A stretch of 64,000 nt of DNA. It comes from Fistulifera solaris (taxonomy: Eukaryota). The notes under the pieces were generated by a model. The model was not told the DNA's origin and searched no databases. It saw only the letters and a list, made by a program, of their open reading frames with translations. The stretch spans positions 1,364,001 through 1,428,000 of the forward strand of contig AP026126.1 in NCBI GenBank assembly GCA_030295235.1. Direction: 5' to 3'. The translations under genes and the position numbers were made by a program. Below, one piece after another: positions 1,135 to 42,025 of this stretch (its first letter is position 1; every line of letters starts with the position of its first letter).

Positions 1135-2412
1135 ATGAAAGCATATATGACATTTCAGCATGGCAGCCAGCCGCTGGGGATATTGTACATGGAATTGGAA
1201 CCGAAAGTCGTTCCCAAAACAGTGCGAAATTTTGAGACATTTCTTCGAAAGGGTTACAAAGGAACGAATGTGCACCGACTGATCAAAGGCTTTATGCTTC
1301 AAGCGGGTGATATCACAGCAGGCGATGGAACAGGAGGATATTCTATTTACGGGAAAACATTTGCGGATGAAAATTTTATTCTTCGACATGATCGCCCCGG
1401 GCGTTTGAGTATGGCGAATGCGGGGCCGAATACAAATGGAAGTCAGTTTTTTATTACGTTCAAACCGACTCCTCATTTAGACGGGAAACATGTTGTGTTC
1501 GGCAGCGTAGACTTGCAGAGAAGTGGGGCGTTGTTGAAAACTCTGGAGCAAATTAAAACGCTATCAAACGACAAACCAAAACAAGAGTTGACAATTGTCG
1601 ATTGTGGTATCCTAGAGGAGGCCTCCAACAGCGCAAAAACGACAGCGGTCGCTGAAGCTGCTGATGTTGATGCAGATGAAATCGACTTGGAAGAAGAAGA
1701 GGATGTTGAGACTGGAAACGATGTTGTAGAGGAAGTTGTTGAACCGGAGGAGGAGGAGGAGGAGGAGGACTCGAAACCGTTAAGTAAATCAGAAGCGTTG
1801 AAGAGGCGATTAAGGAAGCTCAAACAAAAGGTCAACCAAGCGAGACAACTTAATAAACAGGCAGTGAAAGACGAAGGAGAACGGTCGACTGACGAGGGCA
1901 GTGCGTCTGCTCGGAAGAAATTAGCGGCTTCGAATAAAGAGGGCAAGAATTTCATCTGGGCACAACAGAATGCTAAGGCTTTGTCCATTGCCAACGAATC
2001 GGGGGTAGATGCGAAGCATCTGACAGAACAAGCTGTAGATTCAGTTTATAAGGCACGACTAGCCGCTGAACGAGCGGAAACGCAACCTCACAAGTATCTA
2101 CGAGATTTGAAATCTATTCCTCGAAATTTGCCTCAATCCTCAGAGACTGGTATTTTAACCTTCAACCCACTACAGAATGAAGTGAATCCCGACAAAGAAC
2201 GAGAGGGGGCGCGGCGGTTGGCTCTGGAAATGCACAAAAGAGTGGAGAAGAATACGAAACGATTACTTTCTGTCAAGCGCAAAGGTGGCGATGGCGGTGA
2301 CGTTTCTTACATCAACAAGCGGAATAAAATTTTCAATGAGAAAATCAGTCGTGATTATGATAAGCACACGGCGGAAATTCGAGAAAGTTTAGAACGGGGC
2401 AGCGCTTTATAA
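1135..2412 (+). CDS. Cyclophilin-type PPIase fused to a C-terminal SYF2 splicing-factor domain
   Basis: N-terminus has cyclophilin motifs ([40 protein letters not shown]), followed by an acidic linker. C-terminus [34 protein letters not shown] matches the SYF2 end motif. Confidence 0.9.
1747..1769 (+). repeat. (GAG)n microsatellite encoding poly-Glu
   Basis: gaggaggaggaggaggaggagga inside the cyclophilin linker. Confidence 0.8.
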
Positions 2413-18319: not shown

Positions 18320-19796
18320 ATGTTGCGAAGGTGTCTCCCATCTCCCAGAATAACAACGAGGCGCGTTCGACTCCTGTCGACTACGGCGTCCGATCGTCTC
18401 GTGGGTTACTCACCGATGGCGCAGGGAGGACCGGTAAACACCAACAGCACGTATATTCCTACAGAGAAAGATGTCACAACTGCGGGAGGCGTTTGGGCAC
18501 CGACTTCTGCCAAACGGGATGCTTTAGCTGAGTTCAAAACGGCCGCGGCGGGGAAATCACTTGACGAACAAGCGACGAAAGAAGAAAAGTTGGATTTGTA
18601 TCTTGTCGATGGAATGGTTCTTATTGGAAAATGTACCGATGGTTCTTTATTAAATTTATCAGACCCAGCTGACAAAATGAATGCAGTCGAGACGTGGTGG
18701 ATGAAAGAAAAGGTTACTGAAGATACCCTATTGTATCAAGTGCAATGGAAAGAACGACTCACAGATTTGAGCAAGAAGATGGATGCACTTTTGGCTTCAA
18801 TGCCGGCCGATCGATGCCTTCGGGATATTCGCGACTATATGGATGCGCAAGATACGTTAACTGACGAAGACAAGAAACAAGAGACGCCACTTGGCGAGCG
18901 GGCATTTCCCCTAATGACTGGTTTGGACGGAGAGGAGCTAACACAACAGAAGGTAACGGAGGAGAATCTGGAACAAGCAATTTCGCGATTTCGTCTAATC
19001 ATGGCACAAGAGGCGGCCAAAATGTTGATCGAGCGATGGGATCATTTGACAACGCCGTCGGATCATGATGTCGACCGGGCGGCTGTCCAGGGGATCGATT
19101 TGACCAAGCAAGACAAAGTACTTTCGCACCTACAGATGCAATTGGTTCTAGAATCATTTATTCAAGGTGACTGCGCCAGTAGAGTAGAGTCGCTTTGGGG
19201 AATGTTCAATAAAGAAGGGGATGGTTTACTCGATGAGGATAAAATGAACATGGTGTGCGAATTGGCTATAGAACCAGTGGGAAAAGCTCTCGAGCGATTG
19301 CACGACGAGTCGCTGGCTGCATCTCCTGCTCGAAAGGTACTAGAAGAGTTCTCTGCAACTCCGCCTTCTATGGGATGGAGAGAAGGTCGCAAAGACACTG
19401 CAATTAAGAAGAATTTGAAAAGATGTTTCGAACAACATGTAAATATCACTTTCGCGATGAAGTAGAAGTGAATCATAGATTACGGTGCATTTATGCATGG
19501 GCGAATAAAAACATCAAGACAACAAGATAGAGTCCGTTCATGTGGAAGAACAAGGGCTTACAGGACGAAAACGATATGTTGAGTTAAAGCCAAAAATAAG
19601 TTTGGAAGAATTTCGGGAAGTGCAACGTATTCATTTTACACACCTGGACCGCGTAGCTCAAGAGTTTTTGAAGAGTTATCGGGAGGATATTCTCATTAAA
19701 CAGGGTAAAGGAAGGCGGCGCTCTGAATTTTATCGTGAATCGGCACTCTTTCTGACTGTTGTTGCTATTGCTGACTTCATCATAACGTCCTTATAA
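18320..19796 (+). CDS. Hypothetical protein with a mitochondrial-type presequence, a degenerate EF-hand-like segment and a C-terminal TM anchor
   Basis: Arg-rich N-terminus MLRRCLPSPRITTRRVRLLS. LWGMFNKEGDGLLDEDKM is EF-hand-like, and the end ALFLTVVAIADFIITSL is hydrophobic. Frameshift(s) at 19420-19540. Confidence 0.6.
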
Positions 19797-35040: not shown

Positions 35041-35421
35041 GATTTTTCACTTGTTACTAAAAGTAATGAGGTAACTATTGTTTTTCCGACTGCAGTTTCT
35101 TTGATCTAAACAACAAGAACTCATTCGATCGTCTAGCTCGTTGCGAGGTGTCGAGAGACATTTTTACTGGTACGCTTTTTTGTCCCGCCTATTAATCTCG
35201 ATGACTTTTCTTTCATAAACGAAAAGTATCTTAGCGGTATAAAGCTAGTAACTCAAAACTCTATCGTTGATTGGAGTTCCTGGTAATGTGCGCGCACTGC
35301 AACAACATGCGAACATGGACTTTTCTTGTCTTTCTCGTCGAACAGGTGCTGACGCTTTTCTTATTCATTCAAAGGAAACAGGAAATAATAATGAAGCCAG
35401 ATCATTTTTAATAATACAAGC

Positions 35422-36981
35422 ATGACTACCGCGTCAATTTCATGTGCCATAGACCGTAATGATGCGAGCATCCCGGCGGATACTTATTGTTCACGAAAGG
35501 ATGAACAAAGACTTCAACAAACGGCGGAGGACCGTGACGCAACAGAATATCGCAATCCGCTCATGAATTTCTTTGGAAGCAATAACACCCAGCGTCTCGA
35601 TCACGACGAAATAGAGTTGGATGATATTCGTGTTCTTTCTTTCGTCAGCCGAGAGCGCGAACCCGAATTCGACGATTGCCCCGAATACAGCTATGATTCT
35701 GACAATGAAAATACCTCGCAGGACGATTATCACGTGACACATGGTTCCGACGAGGCAGACGAAGTCAAATCTTTGCAAACCTACATTCTCGGAAAGAAAT
35801 ATCATCCCGTTAACGACTACACGCTTCGGAGAGAGGACGAAATATCACTATTTTGGTTCACCTATCGCTGCGATTTCCCTGAAATGAAGCCATATCGAAT
35901 TCAAAGCGATGCCGGCTGGGGTTGTATGCTGCGATCAGCTCAGATGATGGTCTGTCAAGTCCTACGACTACACTACAAATCACGTACATGGAGACCTCCC
36001 AAGTCGTTAGCAGCACGGCGACAAGACCCGTTCGTCAGGAGATTGATGACTTGGTTTGCCGATTTTCCATCGACCACAGAATGCTTTTATTCCTTCCAAA
36101 ACATGGTAGCGGCTGGACTGAACTATGATAAATTACCCGGCGAATGGTACGGACCTGGCACGGTGAGCTTTGTCATTCGCGATTTAGTAGCCATGCACGA
36201 CCAACAGCGGCAAGAGTTCGGCAAGCCTCTATTTCGAGTGCACGTTGCAAGCCAAGGGACTGTGTACCGTGACGAAATTCGCCGACTAATGATACAAGGC
36301 GCAGTAACCGCTGTTCTTACAAGTGGACAAAGTGCATCGAGGCCCCGTGCTGCGCATCCGTTGGACCACGCTGCTTGGGAAGAAGATCGTCTCGAAAAAG
36401 TACCCGATTGGGACACTGCTTTGCTGCTGTTAATCCCTTTGCGCTTGGGTCTGAAAACGTTCAATTTGGACTACGTCCGACCACTTGCTCATACCTTTTC
36501 GTTGCCCCAGTCTGTCGGCGTTTTAGGGGGTCGCCCACGGGGAGCGCGGTATTTTTACGGCGCATTTTCCGATGGATCGAAAATCTTTGGTCTCGATCCG
36601 CATACTGTTCAAGCTGCGCCGCAGCGAGCTTCTGTTAGCATCAACGGAGAACTGTCGTCAGTGATAGATTTATCGGACAACTATCTTCGGTCCATACATA
36701 CAGCCGACCCCGAATCTATTTCCCTCGAGAAGATGGATCCGAGCATCACCCTAGGTTTTTATTGTGAAAACGAACGTGATCTACAATTTGTTTTTGAAAG
36801 CGTACAACAGTGGAAGAGGACACACCCTGGGTCACCGGAGTTGTTTACGACGGCAAATTATTCGCCGGACTACGCAGCAAATGTTTCGTCAACCATGAAG
36901 AAAATCATGCTATCCAGTTCCTCGCTCATTGACACGGAAGATGATCAAATAAGCGATGAAGATGACTATGTCATGCTGTGA
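35422..36981 (+). CDS. ATG4: Cysteine protease ATG4
   Basis: FWFTYR, SDAGWGCMLRSAQMM, PGEWYGP, LIPLRLG, PQSVGVLGGRP, LDPHTVQ and MDPSITLGFY. Confidence 0.95.
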   Translation: MTTASISCAIDRNDASIPADTYCSRKDEQRLQQTAEDRDATEYRNPLMNFFGSNNTQRLDHDEIELDDIRVLSFVSREREPEFDDCPEYSYDSDNENTSQDDYHVTHGSDEADEVKSLQTYILGKKYHPVNDYTLRREDEISLFWFTYRCDFPEMKPYRIQSDAGWGCMLRSAQMMVCQVLRLHYKSRTWRPPKSLAARRQDPFVRRLMTWFADFPSTTECFYSFQNMVAAGLNYDKLPGEWYGPGTVSFVIRDLVAMHDQQRQEFGKPLFRVHVASQGTVYRDEIRRLMIQGAVTAVLTSGQSASRPRAAHPLDHAAWEEDRLEKVPDWDTALLLLIPLRLGLKTFNLDYVRPLAHTFSLPQSVGVLGGRPRGARYFYGAFSDGSKIFGLDPHTVQAAPQRASVSINGELSSVIDLSDNYLRSIHTADPESISLEKMDPSITLGFYCENERDLQFVFESVQQWKRTHPGSPELFTTANYSPDYAANVSSTMKKIMLSSSSLIDTEDDQISDEDDYVML

Positions 36982-37037
36982 GCAGGGAATAGGGAGACGT
37001 GGATGTCATACAACGTTATTTCTTTACACCAAGGGGA

Positions 37038-37136
37038 CGTCTTGAAAAAGTACCCGATTGGGACACTGCTTTGCTGCTATTAATCCCTTTCTGATTGGGT
37101 CTGAACAACGTTCAATTTGGACTACGTTCGAGCACT
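37038..37136 (+). repeat. Diverged copy (about 100 bp) of an internal ATG4 segment (source 36388-36485)
   Basis: Shares gaaaaagtacccgattgggacactgctttgctgct...ttaatcccttt...ttgggtctgaa...aacgttcaatttggactacgt with the source, with a few substitutions and a 1-nt insertion. Confidence 0.9.
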
Positions 37137-37326
37137 ATGTGGTGCAAAAGCTGCGAGAGCGATGCGAGACGCATAGATTGAATACCGCACCGGCAAAGAA
37201 AGTGCATCCACAATCGCACTGGTACCCAATTGTTTGCTGAAGCATGTGATCCGTTTGGAAGCACCACAACAATAAAAAAATGCACCATGGCGCGCAAAAC
37301 TTTTATTGCTAGTAACAAATGAAAAC

Positions 37327-37331
37327 AAAAA
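37327..37331 (-). terminator. Pol III oligo-T terminator
   Basis: TTTTT on the minus strand, 7 nt after the end of the tRNA 5' half and right after the AGCGTT trailer; a further TTTT follows. Confidence 0.7.
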
Positions 37332-37338
37332 GAACGCT

Positions 37339-37419
37339 CATAAGACCGGCACTCTAACCACTGAGTTACTAGGGCATTAGCAATACCCTAGACGGGGTTT
37401 GAACCCGTGGCCTCCGGCT
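37339..37419 (-). tRNA. tRNA-Ile(TAT): Circularly permuted tRNA-Ile(UAU): 3' half 37419-37384, 8-nt spacer, 5' half 37375-37339
   Basis: The joined halves give GCCCTAG TA ACTC AGTGGTTA GAGT G CCGGT CT TAT G|A GCCGG AGGCC ACGGG TTCAAAC CCCGT CTAGGGT A. All four stems pair, invariant residues are present and the discriminator is A. Confidence 0.92.
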
Positions 37420-38968
37420 CACTAGCGTTAGGATTAATTATCTTATCCCCAACTCCCGTGTGGATATTAGCAAAACGCGACATTTTTATTGTATATAAAA
37501 TGTACAAATCTATAAAAAGCACATAAAACAAATTATCTGGTGATGTAGTTCATCCGTAACTTTTCTTTTCAACCGTTCCACCTCAAAATTCTCACCCTGG
37601 TCACTATCAGCGCCATGGTCGTATAGTCAAAACAGGTTTGCGAAATCGTCGGAGGCACTATTTGCACGTCAAAGTTTATGCGGTTTCAATACAAGTGCTT
37701 CTTTCGATGCTCTACTGCTCTTTCCCTTGCTTGCTCTTCCCCCAAATCTGGAGTAGAAAATATGCTGGTCTTGGAATTGAACCAGTGGGTCTGCTTGGTG
37801 TATATTCACAACCCAATGCCACCCAGGAAGCGTGTTTACTGGCGTCCTTGTGGGTCCTGAAAACACCAAGTACTGTCGTTGCCCTTCTGTTTGATGTTTC
37901 TTTTGGTTGTTGGCTTGATGGATAACCCCTAGCGGCAGGAGATTTCCACATCTATTGTTTGTACAGTCTATGTCAGCATGGTACATGTTTGGCCTCTCTT
38001 CAATTTTTTCCAGTATGACATTCAACGGCGAATCAAGAGAAACTTACAGTCCTCCTTATAACACCCGCAACCGTAAAGTGATCTGAAATGAAATTTTCCC
38101 ATCCACTGTGCTAACCTTCATTTGGATGGGGACGTGTCTTCGGGTTAGGGAGTTATAGGCATACGTCTATTCGTCATTGACATGTAGAAAGAGGCTTTCC
38201 CGCCAATTATCAATGCCTTTGCGGAAGCGATTCATGTCGCGAAACAGTGTGTGTGTATCATACATTTTCTTCTTTTCAATATCAGAAGAAATTCAGAAGA
38301 AGATTCTGATGAGTCTCGATGGCCTTTCAACAGGCAAATGATAGTAAAACTTACCTTTTGTTTTGCATCAGATTGTGTTTCTTGTTGTTATCTGACCGAG
38401 AAATCCAAGCTGGCTTTTCAGTTCGACCGTCGTAAATTGTCAATAAAGACCGACAAAGCACATCTCAACATGACAATTTTGTGGCTCTCCAAGACTGATA
38501 TCCCTCAACCTATTTTCAATGCTCTGAGAGGGTTCCTTTTAATTCAATTGCAATATTCCAACTGTCCTCATTGACAGAGAATGGTTGAAGAGACATGTTT
38601 TGCGAGTTGCGAAATGTGTGTCGGTGCGCCAAGGAGAACTGTCCCAATTTCCGGCCTTTGTCATACATGTTAGCCCGGCTTCAACTAAAACAATACAAAA
38701 GAATCACTAGAGTCGCGATCAAACTATCATTCTTCGACGAAAAATACTGTCAGAACTAGCATCGTTGTCGAAATGAGTGTACTGTTAAGCTGTATGTACA
38801 AAATAAGAGTTAAGGATATCTCCGCGAACAGCAGCTGTAATAAAGCGACCATGGTGACCAGTAACCACACATCATGAATATGAAAAAGTGTGGCCGTTTC
38901 TGTCGCCTCCGCATTTTTACAAACAATCTTCATTCGAATTACTTCATCCTGGCTTACCGATAATACAA

Positions 38969-39433: not shown

Positions 39434-42025
39434 TTATTGAGAAGATTTGAGAACTTCTACAGTGAGGACCCAAAATTTAGTACCAACGTGCAGCCCGTAT
39501 GGATTCGCATCAGTCCCTATTTCTCCAGCAACAAGCTCTTCTTGGTAAATAATGCGGCCAAGGACAAAGTCGGGTGACCCCTTGATGCAATCGGTCGACA
39601 GGTAACGATGCGGACAATTCGTATGAAACGCAAGATACATCCGCTTGCCCCCTGTACCGCGACCAGTAGGCATGAAGAGACCAACATCCCCTATGCGGAA
39701 GCTGCTATGACTTATTTTGTCATTGAGCTGATTCGATGCCTCTAATTGATGCGTCGCTTTTTCCAAAAGAACCTTGGTCTTGTCTAGTTCTTTTCGAAGG
39801 GCCACAACTTCCTCTCCGGCAACATCAGCCGCACCATCCTTAGCGCGTGCTTCTTCAATGTAGGCTCGAGGTGGCTTGGCGCCTAAGCGTTCCAAAGTTT
39901 GTCGCAGGATGCAGTTCTCGTAAGCGAGAGTCTTTGCTTCGGCCTCAATAGCAGTGTTTGAAGCAGGATCGAGAATGATCTCATCTCCACTTTGTTCATC
40001 CGCACTGACAATCAAGTGTTCCGGCTGTTGAGCTGGTTCTTGCCCCGCTACCGCGGCACTTGTCATCATATTCGCACTTTGCTGCGGGTGATGACTCTCG
40101 GTGGTAAGTGTTGATGCACTGCCCCCTCCTTGCTCGGCAACTGTGGCGCTTTGCTGCATCAAAGCATCTGCGGCTGAATCCGCAGCGGACGACATCCCAA
40201 CGTTTGGTATTGTGTCCAACTCCACTAGCGCCGGAAGCTGCGGTGTAAACAAGGGAGGAGGTGTAGCCAAAGTAGGTACAAAAATGTCATAAAACGCCGG
40301 CATCAAATGTCGCCCTGCCCCCCTCAAAAACTTTTCTCTCGCTCGGACCTCGTCATCTCTCATTGCCGCCACGCGATCCATCATCGCTGTTGCCGACGCC
40401 ATGACCGCCTGACCATAGGCTCGGCGACGGCGGAGCTCCGACAGGAAGACTCGATACGATTCAGGAAGTTCAGAAACATGTTCTAAGTGAATCATATTTT
40501 CGGCTTGCTGCACAAGCGCTTCCCGAAGAACACCAACGCTAGACAGAACTTTCTGTATCGATGACTGAGCCACACTGACTTCCCGCAGCCTGGCTTTCAT
40601 ACGCCTCATCATACGATTCTTTGCATCAGCCACACTCGCCATCAATTCTTTAAGTTGTTCATCATCTTTCCGCATTTGCGAAACCAAATCCTTTGTCGAA
40701 TTCGACATCTCGCGAAGAGGAGTAAAAACATTCTGTATCTCGTCATCGCTCTGAGAGTTCATAGCATGCGTTATCCTTTGAACAGCATCCCGATGAGCAT
40801 TTCTTAGCATATCCAGTCGCTGCGCTTGCGCTTCATTTATATTTTGGACTGCCTCTTCAACTTTTGACCAAAGGTTGTTGATTTCGTTTTCGGCGTCGTG
40901 ATCTCTTTGTGCAATATCTTCACGGGAAGACGGAGAAGCAAGCTGATTGAATGTGATTTCAAGCTCTCCAAAAGGGAAAGGAGCCTCTGATGAGAATGTA
41001 GGCATTGCGTAGCCCATGCTCGCTCACGCTCTACAGGAACCGTGTCAAGGAGGTTATCCATATTGCGTCCAGCAGCTCGTGCTATCGACACTAATGATGG
41101 ATGCAAAGGGATTGTAGCCAAATTCGAAAGAATAGAATCAAAGCGCTGCAAAAGAGCTCCGTGTGCGGACGTTTTTGCTTGAAAGTTTGCCGTAAATTCT
41201 GCACGTGTTCGGGCCGCCCCATGATAATGGTCTGAAAGATTCGAGACTGCGGCACGCAGAGATCTAGCCATGACCGCCTGCTCCTGCACGCATGATCGAC
41301 AAGCTGCCATGCGAAGATCTGCCCCGTCGGCTAAAACACGCCCTTGGGACATGTGAAGCATAAATTGTCGTTCAAAAGCAAACAAGGGAAGATGCAAAGG
41401 CGGGGCCCCGCTGGGATCGAGCGACAAAGGACTCGGTCCAGGTGCTTCCGTTGGTAGCGTAAGAGTAGTGGGTTCCAGATGACATATAGGAGGGTCGGGT
41501 GCATTTTCAGACAAATCAAGCTTCGAGAATAGAAAAAGGCGTTTCGCACCCGAACGCTCAGATCTTGTCAAAAGAGTTCTTGGTTTAGTGACATCTTCTT
41601 GGATGGGGTCATCTTCCATATCCCCCAGACGCAAAGCATTTAATATTTCCTCTGATTGTAAAGTTGTATTTTTGGGGACTTTGTACGGTGGTCCTAAAAG
41701 AAGAATTTGATTTTGTGGAGGGACAGCAGCGGCCAAATGACTGCGAAGATTTGTCACCCTGCGAAGCAAGAGGCCCATCAGAGAATACGATACAGAACGA
41801 TGGAGGAAGTACAGGACCGCACTTCTATACGAAGCAGTTTCGGAATCAAAAGAGAAACATGAACAGAATAGCATTTCCATCATCTATCACTACCAAGAGT
41901 CTTCCGCAGTCACAGAAATTGCTGACTTACGTGAGTTCTGAAAGCTGCAGCTTTATCTTATAGGTCATCCCTGTACTCGCAGCGAGCACGCGTATCGTCA
42001 CCGACTGCGAATGATTGCTTGTCAT
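39434..42025 (-). CDS. ATG11: Autophagy-related protein 11 (RB1CC1/FIP200-like)
   Basis: N-terminal ubiquitin-like region (IRVLAASTG, VPPQNQILL, RLFLF), coiled coil with ELRRRRAY, and C-terminal Atg11 domain (ISHSSFRIGDVGLFMP, YLAFHTNCPHRYL, FVLGRII, NPYGL). Intron about 41763-41930; slip near 40975. Confidence 0.85.

Follow-up and report, generated by a model that had tools for sequence, protein, structure and literature searches.

The locus analysed here raises the question of how a tRNA gene whose two halves stand in reversed order may yield a tRNA, and whether the short sequences flanking the halves pair into a substrate of the tRNA splicing endonuclease. The window, the whole stretch of DNA analysed, measures 64,000 nt and corresponds to G000:C6:1364001-1428000 of a 51.7-Mb assembly. 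Silicon transporter genes, scoring up to 742 bits, reside on paired contigs of this assembly, and we infer that the genome is that of a diatom with two diverged genome copies.

A tRNA-Ile(UAU) gene spans positions 37419-37339 on the minus strand of the window. The gene is circularly permuted, as the 3' half comes first and is followed by an 8-nt linker, the 5' half and a T5 run. Once the halves are re-ordered, ARAGORN calls a 73-nt tRNA-Ile(TAT) with 21/21 stem pairs; on the linear window ARAGORN detected no tRNA, and Rfam gave no match. A dimer scan of the entire window (1063 overlapping stretches) returned the permuted Ile(UAU) gene as its sole find. One match to the permuted pattern, at window positions 18365-18429, was rejected, as it is not a tRNA. 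The elements of the locus, listed 5' to 3' along the minus strand (L002 denotes the second genomic copy), are the following.

37433..37440, minus strand: AT-rich element, possible but uncertain upstream promoter, 21 nt before A38; a second TATA-like run starts at 37499, and neither is matched in L002
37424..37429, minus strand: leader strand (leader -10 to -5) of the outer 6-bp helix, pair probabilities 0.59-1.0; same in L002
37420..37423, minus strand: leader -4 to -1; A(-4) and G(-3) are able to pair with U33 and C32, while U(-2), G(-1) and A38 make up the 3' bulge
between 37420 and 37419, minus strand: predicted 3' cut, between the leader and A38; register retained in relatives, not the minimum fold here
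37384..37419, minus strand: 3' half of tRNA-Ile(UAU), A38 to discriminator A73, from the re-ordered tRNA call
37376..37383, minus strand: intervening sequence of 8 nt, from A73 to G1; a 3-bp hairpin extends the acceptor stem
37339..37375, minus strand: 5' half of tRNA-Ile(UAU), G1 to G37, including the D arm and its A box; TAT anticodon at 37342-37340
between 37339 and 37338, minus strand: predicted 5' cut, between G37 and the trailer
37333..37338, minus strand: second (trailer) strand of the outer 6-bp helix, starting with a 3-nt repeat of positions 38-40; same in L002
37327..37331, minus strand: T5 run, likely RNA polymerase III terminator, 7 nt past G37

The 3' half includes the 3' strand of the anticodon stem, the variable loop, the T arm with the B box, and the 3' strand of the acceptor stem. 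CCA is not encoded after A73. The linker is devoid of T runs, and measures 9 nt in L002 and 5-11 nt in the relatives described below. Runs of at least four Ts begin 0-19 nt past position 37 in 12/12 permuted copies tabulated. G37, odd at first sight beside U36, is the norm for Ile(UAU), being present in 33/34 metagenome loci.

The tRNA gene is flanked by two autophagy genes, ATG4 (35395-36981, plus strand) and ATG11 (39434-41883, minus strand), arranged tail to tail. Just 3' of ATG4, positions 37038-37136 host a 99-nt duplicate of an ATG4-internal piece (36388-36485, 92% identical, 1-nt gap), which the second genome copy lacks at the corresponding site. A single T-loop-like motif with a 3-bp stem, probably a chance occurrence, is located at 37785-37772 (minus strand), some 350 nt upstream of the tRNA gene; no tRNA was found around it by either linear or dimer scan.

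The same permutation marks contig C5 (L002), with a 9-nt linker, beside a syntenic ATG4 homeolog which is 91% identical. The tRNA bodies of the two copies differ at 8/73 nt and retain 21/21 pairs, thanks to three two-sided compensations (4-69, 49-65, 52-62) and a one-sided one. The flanks are unchanged over 10 leader and 6 trailer bases, against 78% identity (107/137) in the farther flanks (p ~0.02). The L002 region (G000:C5:1467810-1469170) carries ~1.3 kb of additional sequence upstream of the tRNA gene, and the TATA-like run upstream of the window copy is hence not shared. Three sequencing runs (X1-X3) were compared over 36900-37900. X1 contigs cover both genomic versions at similar depth, with no joint within the gene; as X1 resembles a DNA run, from which the assembly itself may derive, it was not counted as support.

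A scan of metagenome contigs, requiring an Ile(TAT) 5' half preceded by a 3' half, identified 34 loci. Stand-alone permuted Ile(TAT) genes account for 7/34 (L192, L195, L206, L209, L217, L221, L224), and correspond to 5 distinct loci, as L217 repeats L209 and L224 repeats L221. The remaining 27/34 are tandem arrays of complete genes, which mimic the permuted pattern and were excluded before pairs were counted. Such arrays (L191, L204, L205, L215 and others) are made by 2-3 identical intronless tRNA-Ile(TAT) genes separated by short spacers, and many are found within AT-rich, virus-like tRNA clusters. At least 120 viral stretches matched the pattern; the 80 examined were all tandem arrays, none permuted.

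The five distinct relatives have bodies identical to the window gene at 54-59/73 nt, with 19-20/21 stem pairs and 4-6 two-sided compensations each. In L192, as in the window, the tRNA gene follows ATG11 on the same strand; the linkage is thus kept, and the ATG11 proteins are 47% identical. The nearest named homolog of the protein encoded next to L209 is from Thalassiosirales (68%, vs ~50% for pennates), which would place L209 near this group of centric diatoms. The best named relatives of the L206 neighbour are also diatoms (53-56%). L195 features two permuted Ile(UAU) genes in tandem (~1420-1740, minus strand); the middle of the array, made by the 5' half of the first copy and the 3' half of the second, is formally a conventional gene with a 78-nt intron holding a T5 run. 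In L221/L224 the linker measures 5 nt and the 5' half runs directly into a T8 run, with almost no trailer. These loci adjoin a member of a large MYND-finger family (389 relatives), and their lineage is possibly not a diatom.

The original prediction had the leader and the trailer pairing into a relaxed bulge-helix-bulge (BHB). Its coordinates, and the perfect complementarity of leader 37429-37424 and trailer 37338-37333, all hold on the minus strand. At the sequence level the drawn structure is also possible, since A37423 may pair with U33 (37343) and G37422 with C32 (37344), leaving a 3-nt bulge of U, G and A38 (37421-37419) and U34 to G37 unpaired; it is not, however, the predicted minimum fold. 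Folding the locus, as had been proposed, gave a divided answer, as the outer 6-bp helix is well populated but the 2-bp C32/U33 register is disfavoured. The drawn register measures -33.5 kcal/mol, the minimum -40.7 kcal/mol, a gap of 7.2 kcal/mol corresponding to a probability of 6e-7. The reason is a competing helix, in which positions 36-32 pair with the final three bases of the leader and with A38 and G39, and U31 is bulged. The 3' site is buried inside a helix in this minimum fold, and constraining the anticodon stem to form does not bring the drawn register into favour. L002 shows an identical gap of 7.2 kcal/mol; in five copies from relatives the gap ranges over 0-4.8 kcal/mol. The mature body, like four conventional Ile(UAU) genes, shows a smaller slip too, so the slip is in part intrinsic to the Ile(UAU) anticodon arm and reflects in part the limits of the energy model; folding predictions ignore modifications and proteins.

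In the window copy the chance of an exact 6-mer complement, computed after the fact, is ~2e-4 per register and ~1e-3 over 7 registers, and the leader-trailer duplex is unremarkable, 129/347 upstream windows being as good. The fold z-score of -3.98 (0/200 shuffles as good) is mostly owed to the tRNA body. The junction is spanned by 5 repeated nt, two of them before it and three after it, as a result of which the window copy alone leaves the cut unfixed: paired cuts from 35/36 to 40/41 all give the same product. The central helix is only 2 bp long, as had been pointed out at the outset; with 2/4 pairs and a 4-nt 5' loop it is the poorest of the Ile set, relatives having 3-4 pairs. The window copy thus departs from the strict archaeal BHB (hBHBh', a 4-bp central helix between two 3-nt bulges). 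By sequence, and in a non-minimum fold, it conforms at the junction to a relaxed BHB, the 'no H' type in the terms of PMC3978253.

A clearer picture emerges from the comparison of lineages. Pairs were counted in six Ile lineages, L195 being represented by one of its two copies, and in one Cys and one Arg copy of the additional permuted genes described below; L217 and L224, which repeat other loci, were omitted. Among the six Ile lineages the leaders have no clear shared sequence, yet positions 32-35 pair with leader -3 to -6 in 19/24 cases. Slid registers give 6-12/24, and the composition null has a mean of 9.1 (p ~2e-5, a value which treats related lineages as independent). If the window gene is omitted, the canonical register still has 17/20 pairs and slid ones 5-11. 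L192 and L206 feature a full 4-bp central helix; the window gene has the fewest pairs (2). Leader-trailer duplexes formed by the gene's own flanks beat swapped ones, as only 91/40320 permutations (six Ile, one Cys, one Arg) are as good. Relatives lacking leader/trailer complementarity had been named as the observation that would speak against the proposal; the 19/24 register pairs and the advantage of own over swapped duplexes give no such refutation, though the signal is less clear for the window copy itself. The position of the cut is also better defined in relatives. The junction is free of repeats in L221 and in the Cys and Arg genes, and the cut is therefore fixed at 37/38; the four other Ile lineages narrow it to within 1-2 nt of 37/38.

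Pairing of C32 with G(-3), equated in the original prediction with the anticodon-intron pair of the TSEN endonuclease, was borne out in part. By sequence the pair is possible, with a 3-nt bulge, in the window copy, where it belongs to a non-minimum fold, and in 5/6 Ile lineages overall. It is missing in one Ile relative, L221, which has a T run as sole trailer, and also in both Cys genes, both Arg genes and one conventional Lys intron. A C32:purine(-3) pair is thus not a strict requirement in this genome. The flanks had also been viewed as two pieces of an ancestral 37/38 intron kept under selection. That flank pairing is under selection in the family is well supported by the comparison of sequences, as pairing is retained. 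Descent of the flanks from one ancestral intron is plausible, but lineages share no sequence likeness and no intron-bearing relative was found. Such an origin would correspond to the published duplication-and-loss model, in which the flanks of permuted tRNA genes are old intron halves (PMC3978253, section 10). Ile(TAT) genes with a canonical intron are described in Ginkgo (bioRxiv 10.1101/2021.12.21.473619).

The need for the permuted gene was evaluated by pattern searches of the genome. The Ile(TAT) 5'-half pattern gave 20 matches (control 13), which correspond to the two permuted copies, one Lys(CTT) gene and 17 non-tRNAs. With a conventional Ile(UAU) pattern, in which introns could reach 30 nt, there were 2 matches (control 9), and neither is a tRNA; a conventional gene could elude one of these patterns if its D arm were atypical, or if its intron were non-canonical or >30 nt long. 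An Rfam tRNA search of the genome scored 63/1922 candidates, mainly on small organelle-like contigs, and does not amount to an inventory. The Lys(CTT) gene (L010, G000:C6:500626, minus strand) is conventional, with a 16-nt intron at 37/38 without the C32:purine(-3) pair. ATA makes up 111/552 Ile codons in the 23 long ORFs of the window.

A general pattern, T arm followed by D arm, covered linkers up to 30 nt and junctions in the anticodon loop, and gave 61 matches (control 63): 30 were dimer-tested, 4 had the linear check alone, 13 nuclear ones were assessed by their matched string alone, and 14 reside on small organelle-like contigs. Six permuted genes were found among the 30 dimer-tested, namely Ile(UAU), Cys(GCA) and Arg(ACG), each on two paired contigs. 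When permuted genes were sought with a D arm of the Leu/Ser type, 6 matches (control 7) were obtained, none recognised as permuted by the linear check, the only one applied. The Cys and Arg genes are as follows.

G000:C3:1297531 (L031) and C4:1215553 (L035), plus strand: permuted tRNA-Cys(GCA), junction 37/38, 8-nt linkers differing between the copies
G000:C3:1501470 (L032) and C4:1431085 (L036), minus strand: permuted tRNA-Arg(ACG), 10-nt linker

In the Cys genes 3/4 central pairs are kept via base changes between the copies, and the motif is near-canonical. The Cys(GCA) 5'-half pattern gave 31 matches; two are the permuted copies, and none of the other 29, which were fetched, is a tRNA. The Arg flanks make 1/4 pairs in the canonical register. 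By eye, the Arg leader end resembles the Ile leader but is one base longer, so a C32:G pair would need a 4-nt bulge. A conventional Arg(ACG) pattern gave 12 matches, 9 nuclear non-tRNAs and 3 on organelle-like contigs. A cytosolic Cys tRNA is required by the cell, and Cys(GCA) cannot be replaced by another tRNA. It follows that one or more of the permuted genes very probably undergo processing in this organism.

Taken together, the data make it very likely that the window hosts a functional, circularly permuted nuclear tRNA-Ile(UAU) gene of a diatom, of type II (junction 37/38). The processing steps may be outlined by analogy with known systems. By analogy with Cyanidioschyzon and Ostreococcus (PMC3978253), RNA polymerase III would transcribe the gene into one short precursor. 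The halves would fold into a cloverleaf, and leader and trailer would pair, mimicking an intron with an open loop; in the window copy, the two ends are probably fastened together by the outer 6-bp helix. Taking its measure from the tRNA body, the tRNA splicing endonuclease would then cut between G37 and the trailer and between the leader and A38, and a ligase would join position 37 to 38, yielding a circle. RNase P and RNase Z would excise the linker, and CCA would be added afterwards. The tRNA-splicing enzyme can probably join the halves, given that flank pairing resembles that of intron ends. In the window copy the endonuclease would have to force the 2-bp anticodon-leader register against the more stable slipped fold, and use of this exact register, dependent on the enzyme, is plausible. 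In the human TSEN structure the helix beginning with the C32-intron pair stacks on the anticodon stem, three bases are flipped out at the 3' site, and the 5' side is flexible (PMC10539383), an arrangement that agrees with the geometry of the original prediction. Endonuclease catalytic domains (PF01974) are encoded at three places in the genome. Since the C32:purine(-3) pair is absent from several genes, the diatom enzyme seems to be tolerant.

Upstream sequences are heterogeneous. The Cys and Arg genes, L195 and L206 have TATA-like motifs 35-50 nt upstream of position 38; in the window copy such motifs lie at -21 and -80, and L002, L192 and L209 have no match. A search of the genome for the TFIIIC B-block family gave no candidate, a result which does not imply absence.

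Alternative readings differ in what they take from these data. The gene may be functional and joined at 37/38 without the enzyme reading the drawn flank pairing. The endonuclease would then measure from the tRNA body, acting on the slipped fold or on an open junction, and the 6-bp helix would be a by-product of the repeat, or protect the ends. The very low probability of the drawn register fits this reading, as does the fact that 3/6 trailer bases repeat positions 38-40, and so do the genes with poor flanks: L221, almost without trailer and with no C32:G pair, Arg with 1/4 pairs, and the conventional Lys intron without the pair. On the other hand, the canonical register is found in five other lineages with unrelated leaders (17/20, slid 5-11), own leader-trailer pairs surpass swapped ones (91/40320), relatives do not keep the junction repeat, and the catalytic pocket of human TSEN holds the C32-intron pair and the 3-nt bulge (PMC10539383). 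We regard this reading as unlikely, though as the most probable of the alternatives. A different order of events has been weighed as well, in which RNase P and Z remove the linker first and 37/38 is joined afterwards, the tRNA being assembled in trans from two pieces, with no circle. The order of the steps cannot be read from DNA, and the linear precursor has its acceptor and T arms whole; permuted tRNAs of red and green algae, however, give circular intermediates which retain the linker (PMC3978253), and linkers of 5-11 nt are within the range of these algal genes. Such a route is accordingly quite improbable.

The notion that the locus is a pseudogene is less probable still. A tandem duplication of Ile(UAU) genes, followed by decay of the outer halves, would have left the 5-nt junction repeat as a scar, and AUA codons would be read by another tRNA; the splice fold is not the minimum, and the genome was searched by patterns, which give no full inventory. 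Against decay stand the stems, compensated between the two copies and across five other lineages, and the same layout beside ATG11 at 47% protein identity. Moreover, pattern searches found no conventional Ile(UAU) copy, and the irreplaceable Cys(GCA) is arranged alike. The probability that the halves were swapped by an assembly artefact is close to nil, as nothing beyond the odd layout speaks for it. The earlier argument against a swap was confirmed on independent grounds: two diverged copies reside on different contigs, independent metagenome contigs carry the same arrangement, and two further permuted families are found in paired contigs.

By tests at the DNA level the Ile(UAU) gene belongs to the type II permuted tRNA genes, without a strict BHB. 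Genes of this type (37/38) are known in Ostreococcus, Micromonas and the nucleomorph of Bigelowiella natans (Maruyama et al. 2010, in PMC3978253 Table 1). They have in common with the diatom gene the order of the halves, 3' first, the 37/38 junction, a short linker (8 nt here, 5-64 there), BHB-like flanks, a T-run terminator and no encoded CCA, and Cys(GCA) is permuted in both groups. In contrast, the host here is a diatom nucleus, and the central helix of the window copy measures 2 bp. Layout, junction and linker length are also shared with the type II genes of Cyanidioschyzon merolae for Leu(CAG) and Gly(CCC), which have linkers of 9 and 7 nt, respectively (Soma et al. 2007, 2013, via PMC3978253), and the circular intermediate proposed is the same. 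C. merolae features additional junctions at 20/21, 50/51 and 59/60 (PMC3978253), whereas the present search concerned junctions in the anticodon loop; three introns are described in its Ile(UAU) gene (PMC9602550), which stands outside the permuted list.

As in eukaryotic intron-containing pre-tRNAs (TSEN, PMC10539383), C32 may pair with the third-last base before position 38, next to a 3-base bulge and a flexible 5' site. Unlike here, those pre-tRNAs have a 4-bp helix and a closed intron loop; the window copy has 2 bp (relatives 3-4) and open leader and trailer ends. Reversed halves missed by standard finders are also described in Auxenochlorella (PMC12636532; 2025) and Thermofilum pendens (PMC3978253 Table 1), which belong to other lineages; the T. 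pendens genes join at 59/60 and encode CCA (PMC3978253). Flank pairing is, in this light, the expected hallmark of a known class, not a new mechanism.

The 34-gene table of 2014 (PMC3978253 Table 1) lists no stramenopile, no Ile and no Arg(ACG). In the accessible text of a 2026 review permuted genes are named solely for red and green algae, a nucleomorph and archaea (PMC13578239), and the accessible pages of PlantRNA 2.0, which covers two heterokonts, mention them for one red alga only. The string 'permut' is absent from a study of tRNA-Arg in diatoms, and the description of one diatom genome states, in general terms, that all 20 amino acids have tRNAs, a set possibly including organellar genes. 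No report of permuted tRNA genes in diatoms was found in the searchable literature, to which subscription papers, figure panels and supplements may add one. Permuted tRNA genes are thus a known mechanism; what appears to be new, within the literature searched, is the diatom lineage, along with the Ile(UAU) and Arg(ACG) isoacceptors.

These data extend the permuted design, so far listed for some red and green micro-algae, nucleomorphs and a single archaeon, to diatoms, a major group of ocean algae, and add two isoacceptors to it. As ARAGORN and Rfam miss the gene described here, diatom tRNA sets obtained with standard finders are incomplete. The natural range of flanks, from a full 4-bp motif through a 2-bp one to almost no trailer, offers a means to probe the needs of a eukaryotic splicing endonuclease. 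Some diatoms have gene-editing tools, so transcription with reversed internal promoters, and the persistence of such genes, may be tested in these organisms. Tentatively, and with somewhat less than even confidence, centric and pennate diatoms may have inherited a fixed permuted set (Ile-UAU, Cys-GCA, Arg-ACG) from a common ancestor, with no conventional nuclear copies. Decoding of AUA, of all cysteine codons and of CGU/CGC in the cytosol would then rely on circular-RNA splicing, upstream promoters and A and B boxes in reversed order. The set may trace to the red-algal endosymbiont. If this holds true, diatoms would provide the first stramenopile case, and permuted tRNA genes would be in this group long-lived and essential components, rather than sporadic accidents.
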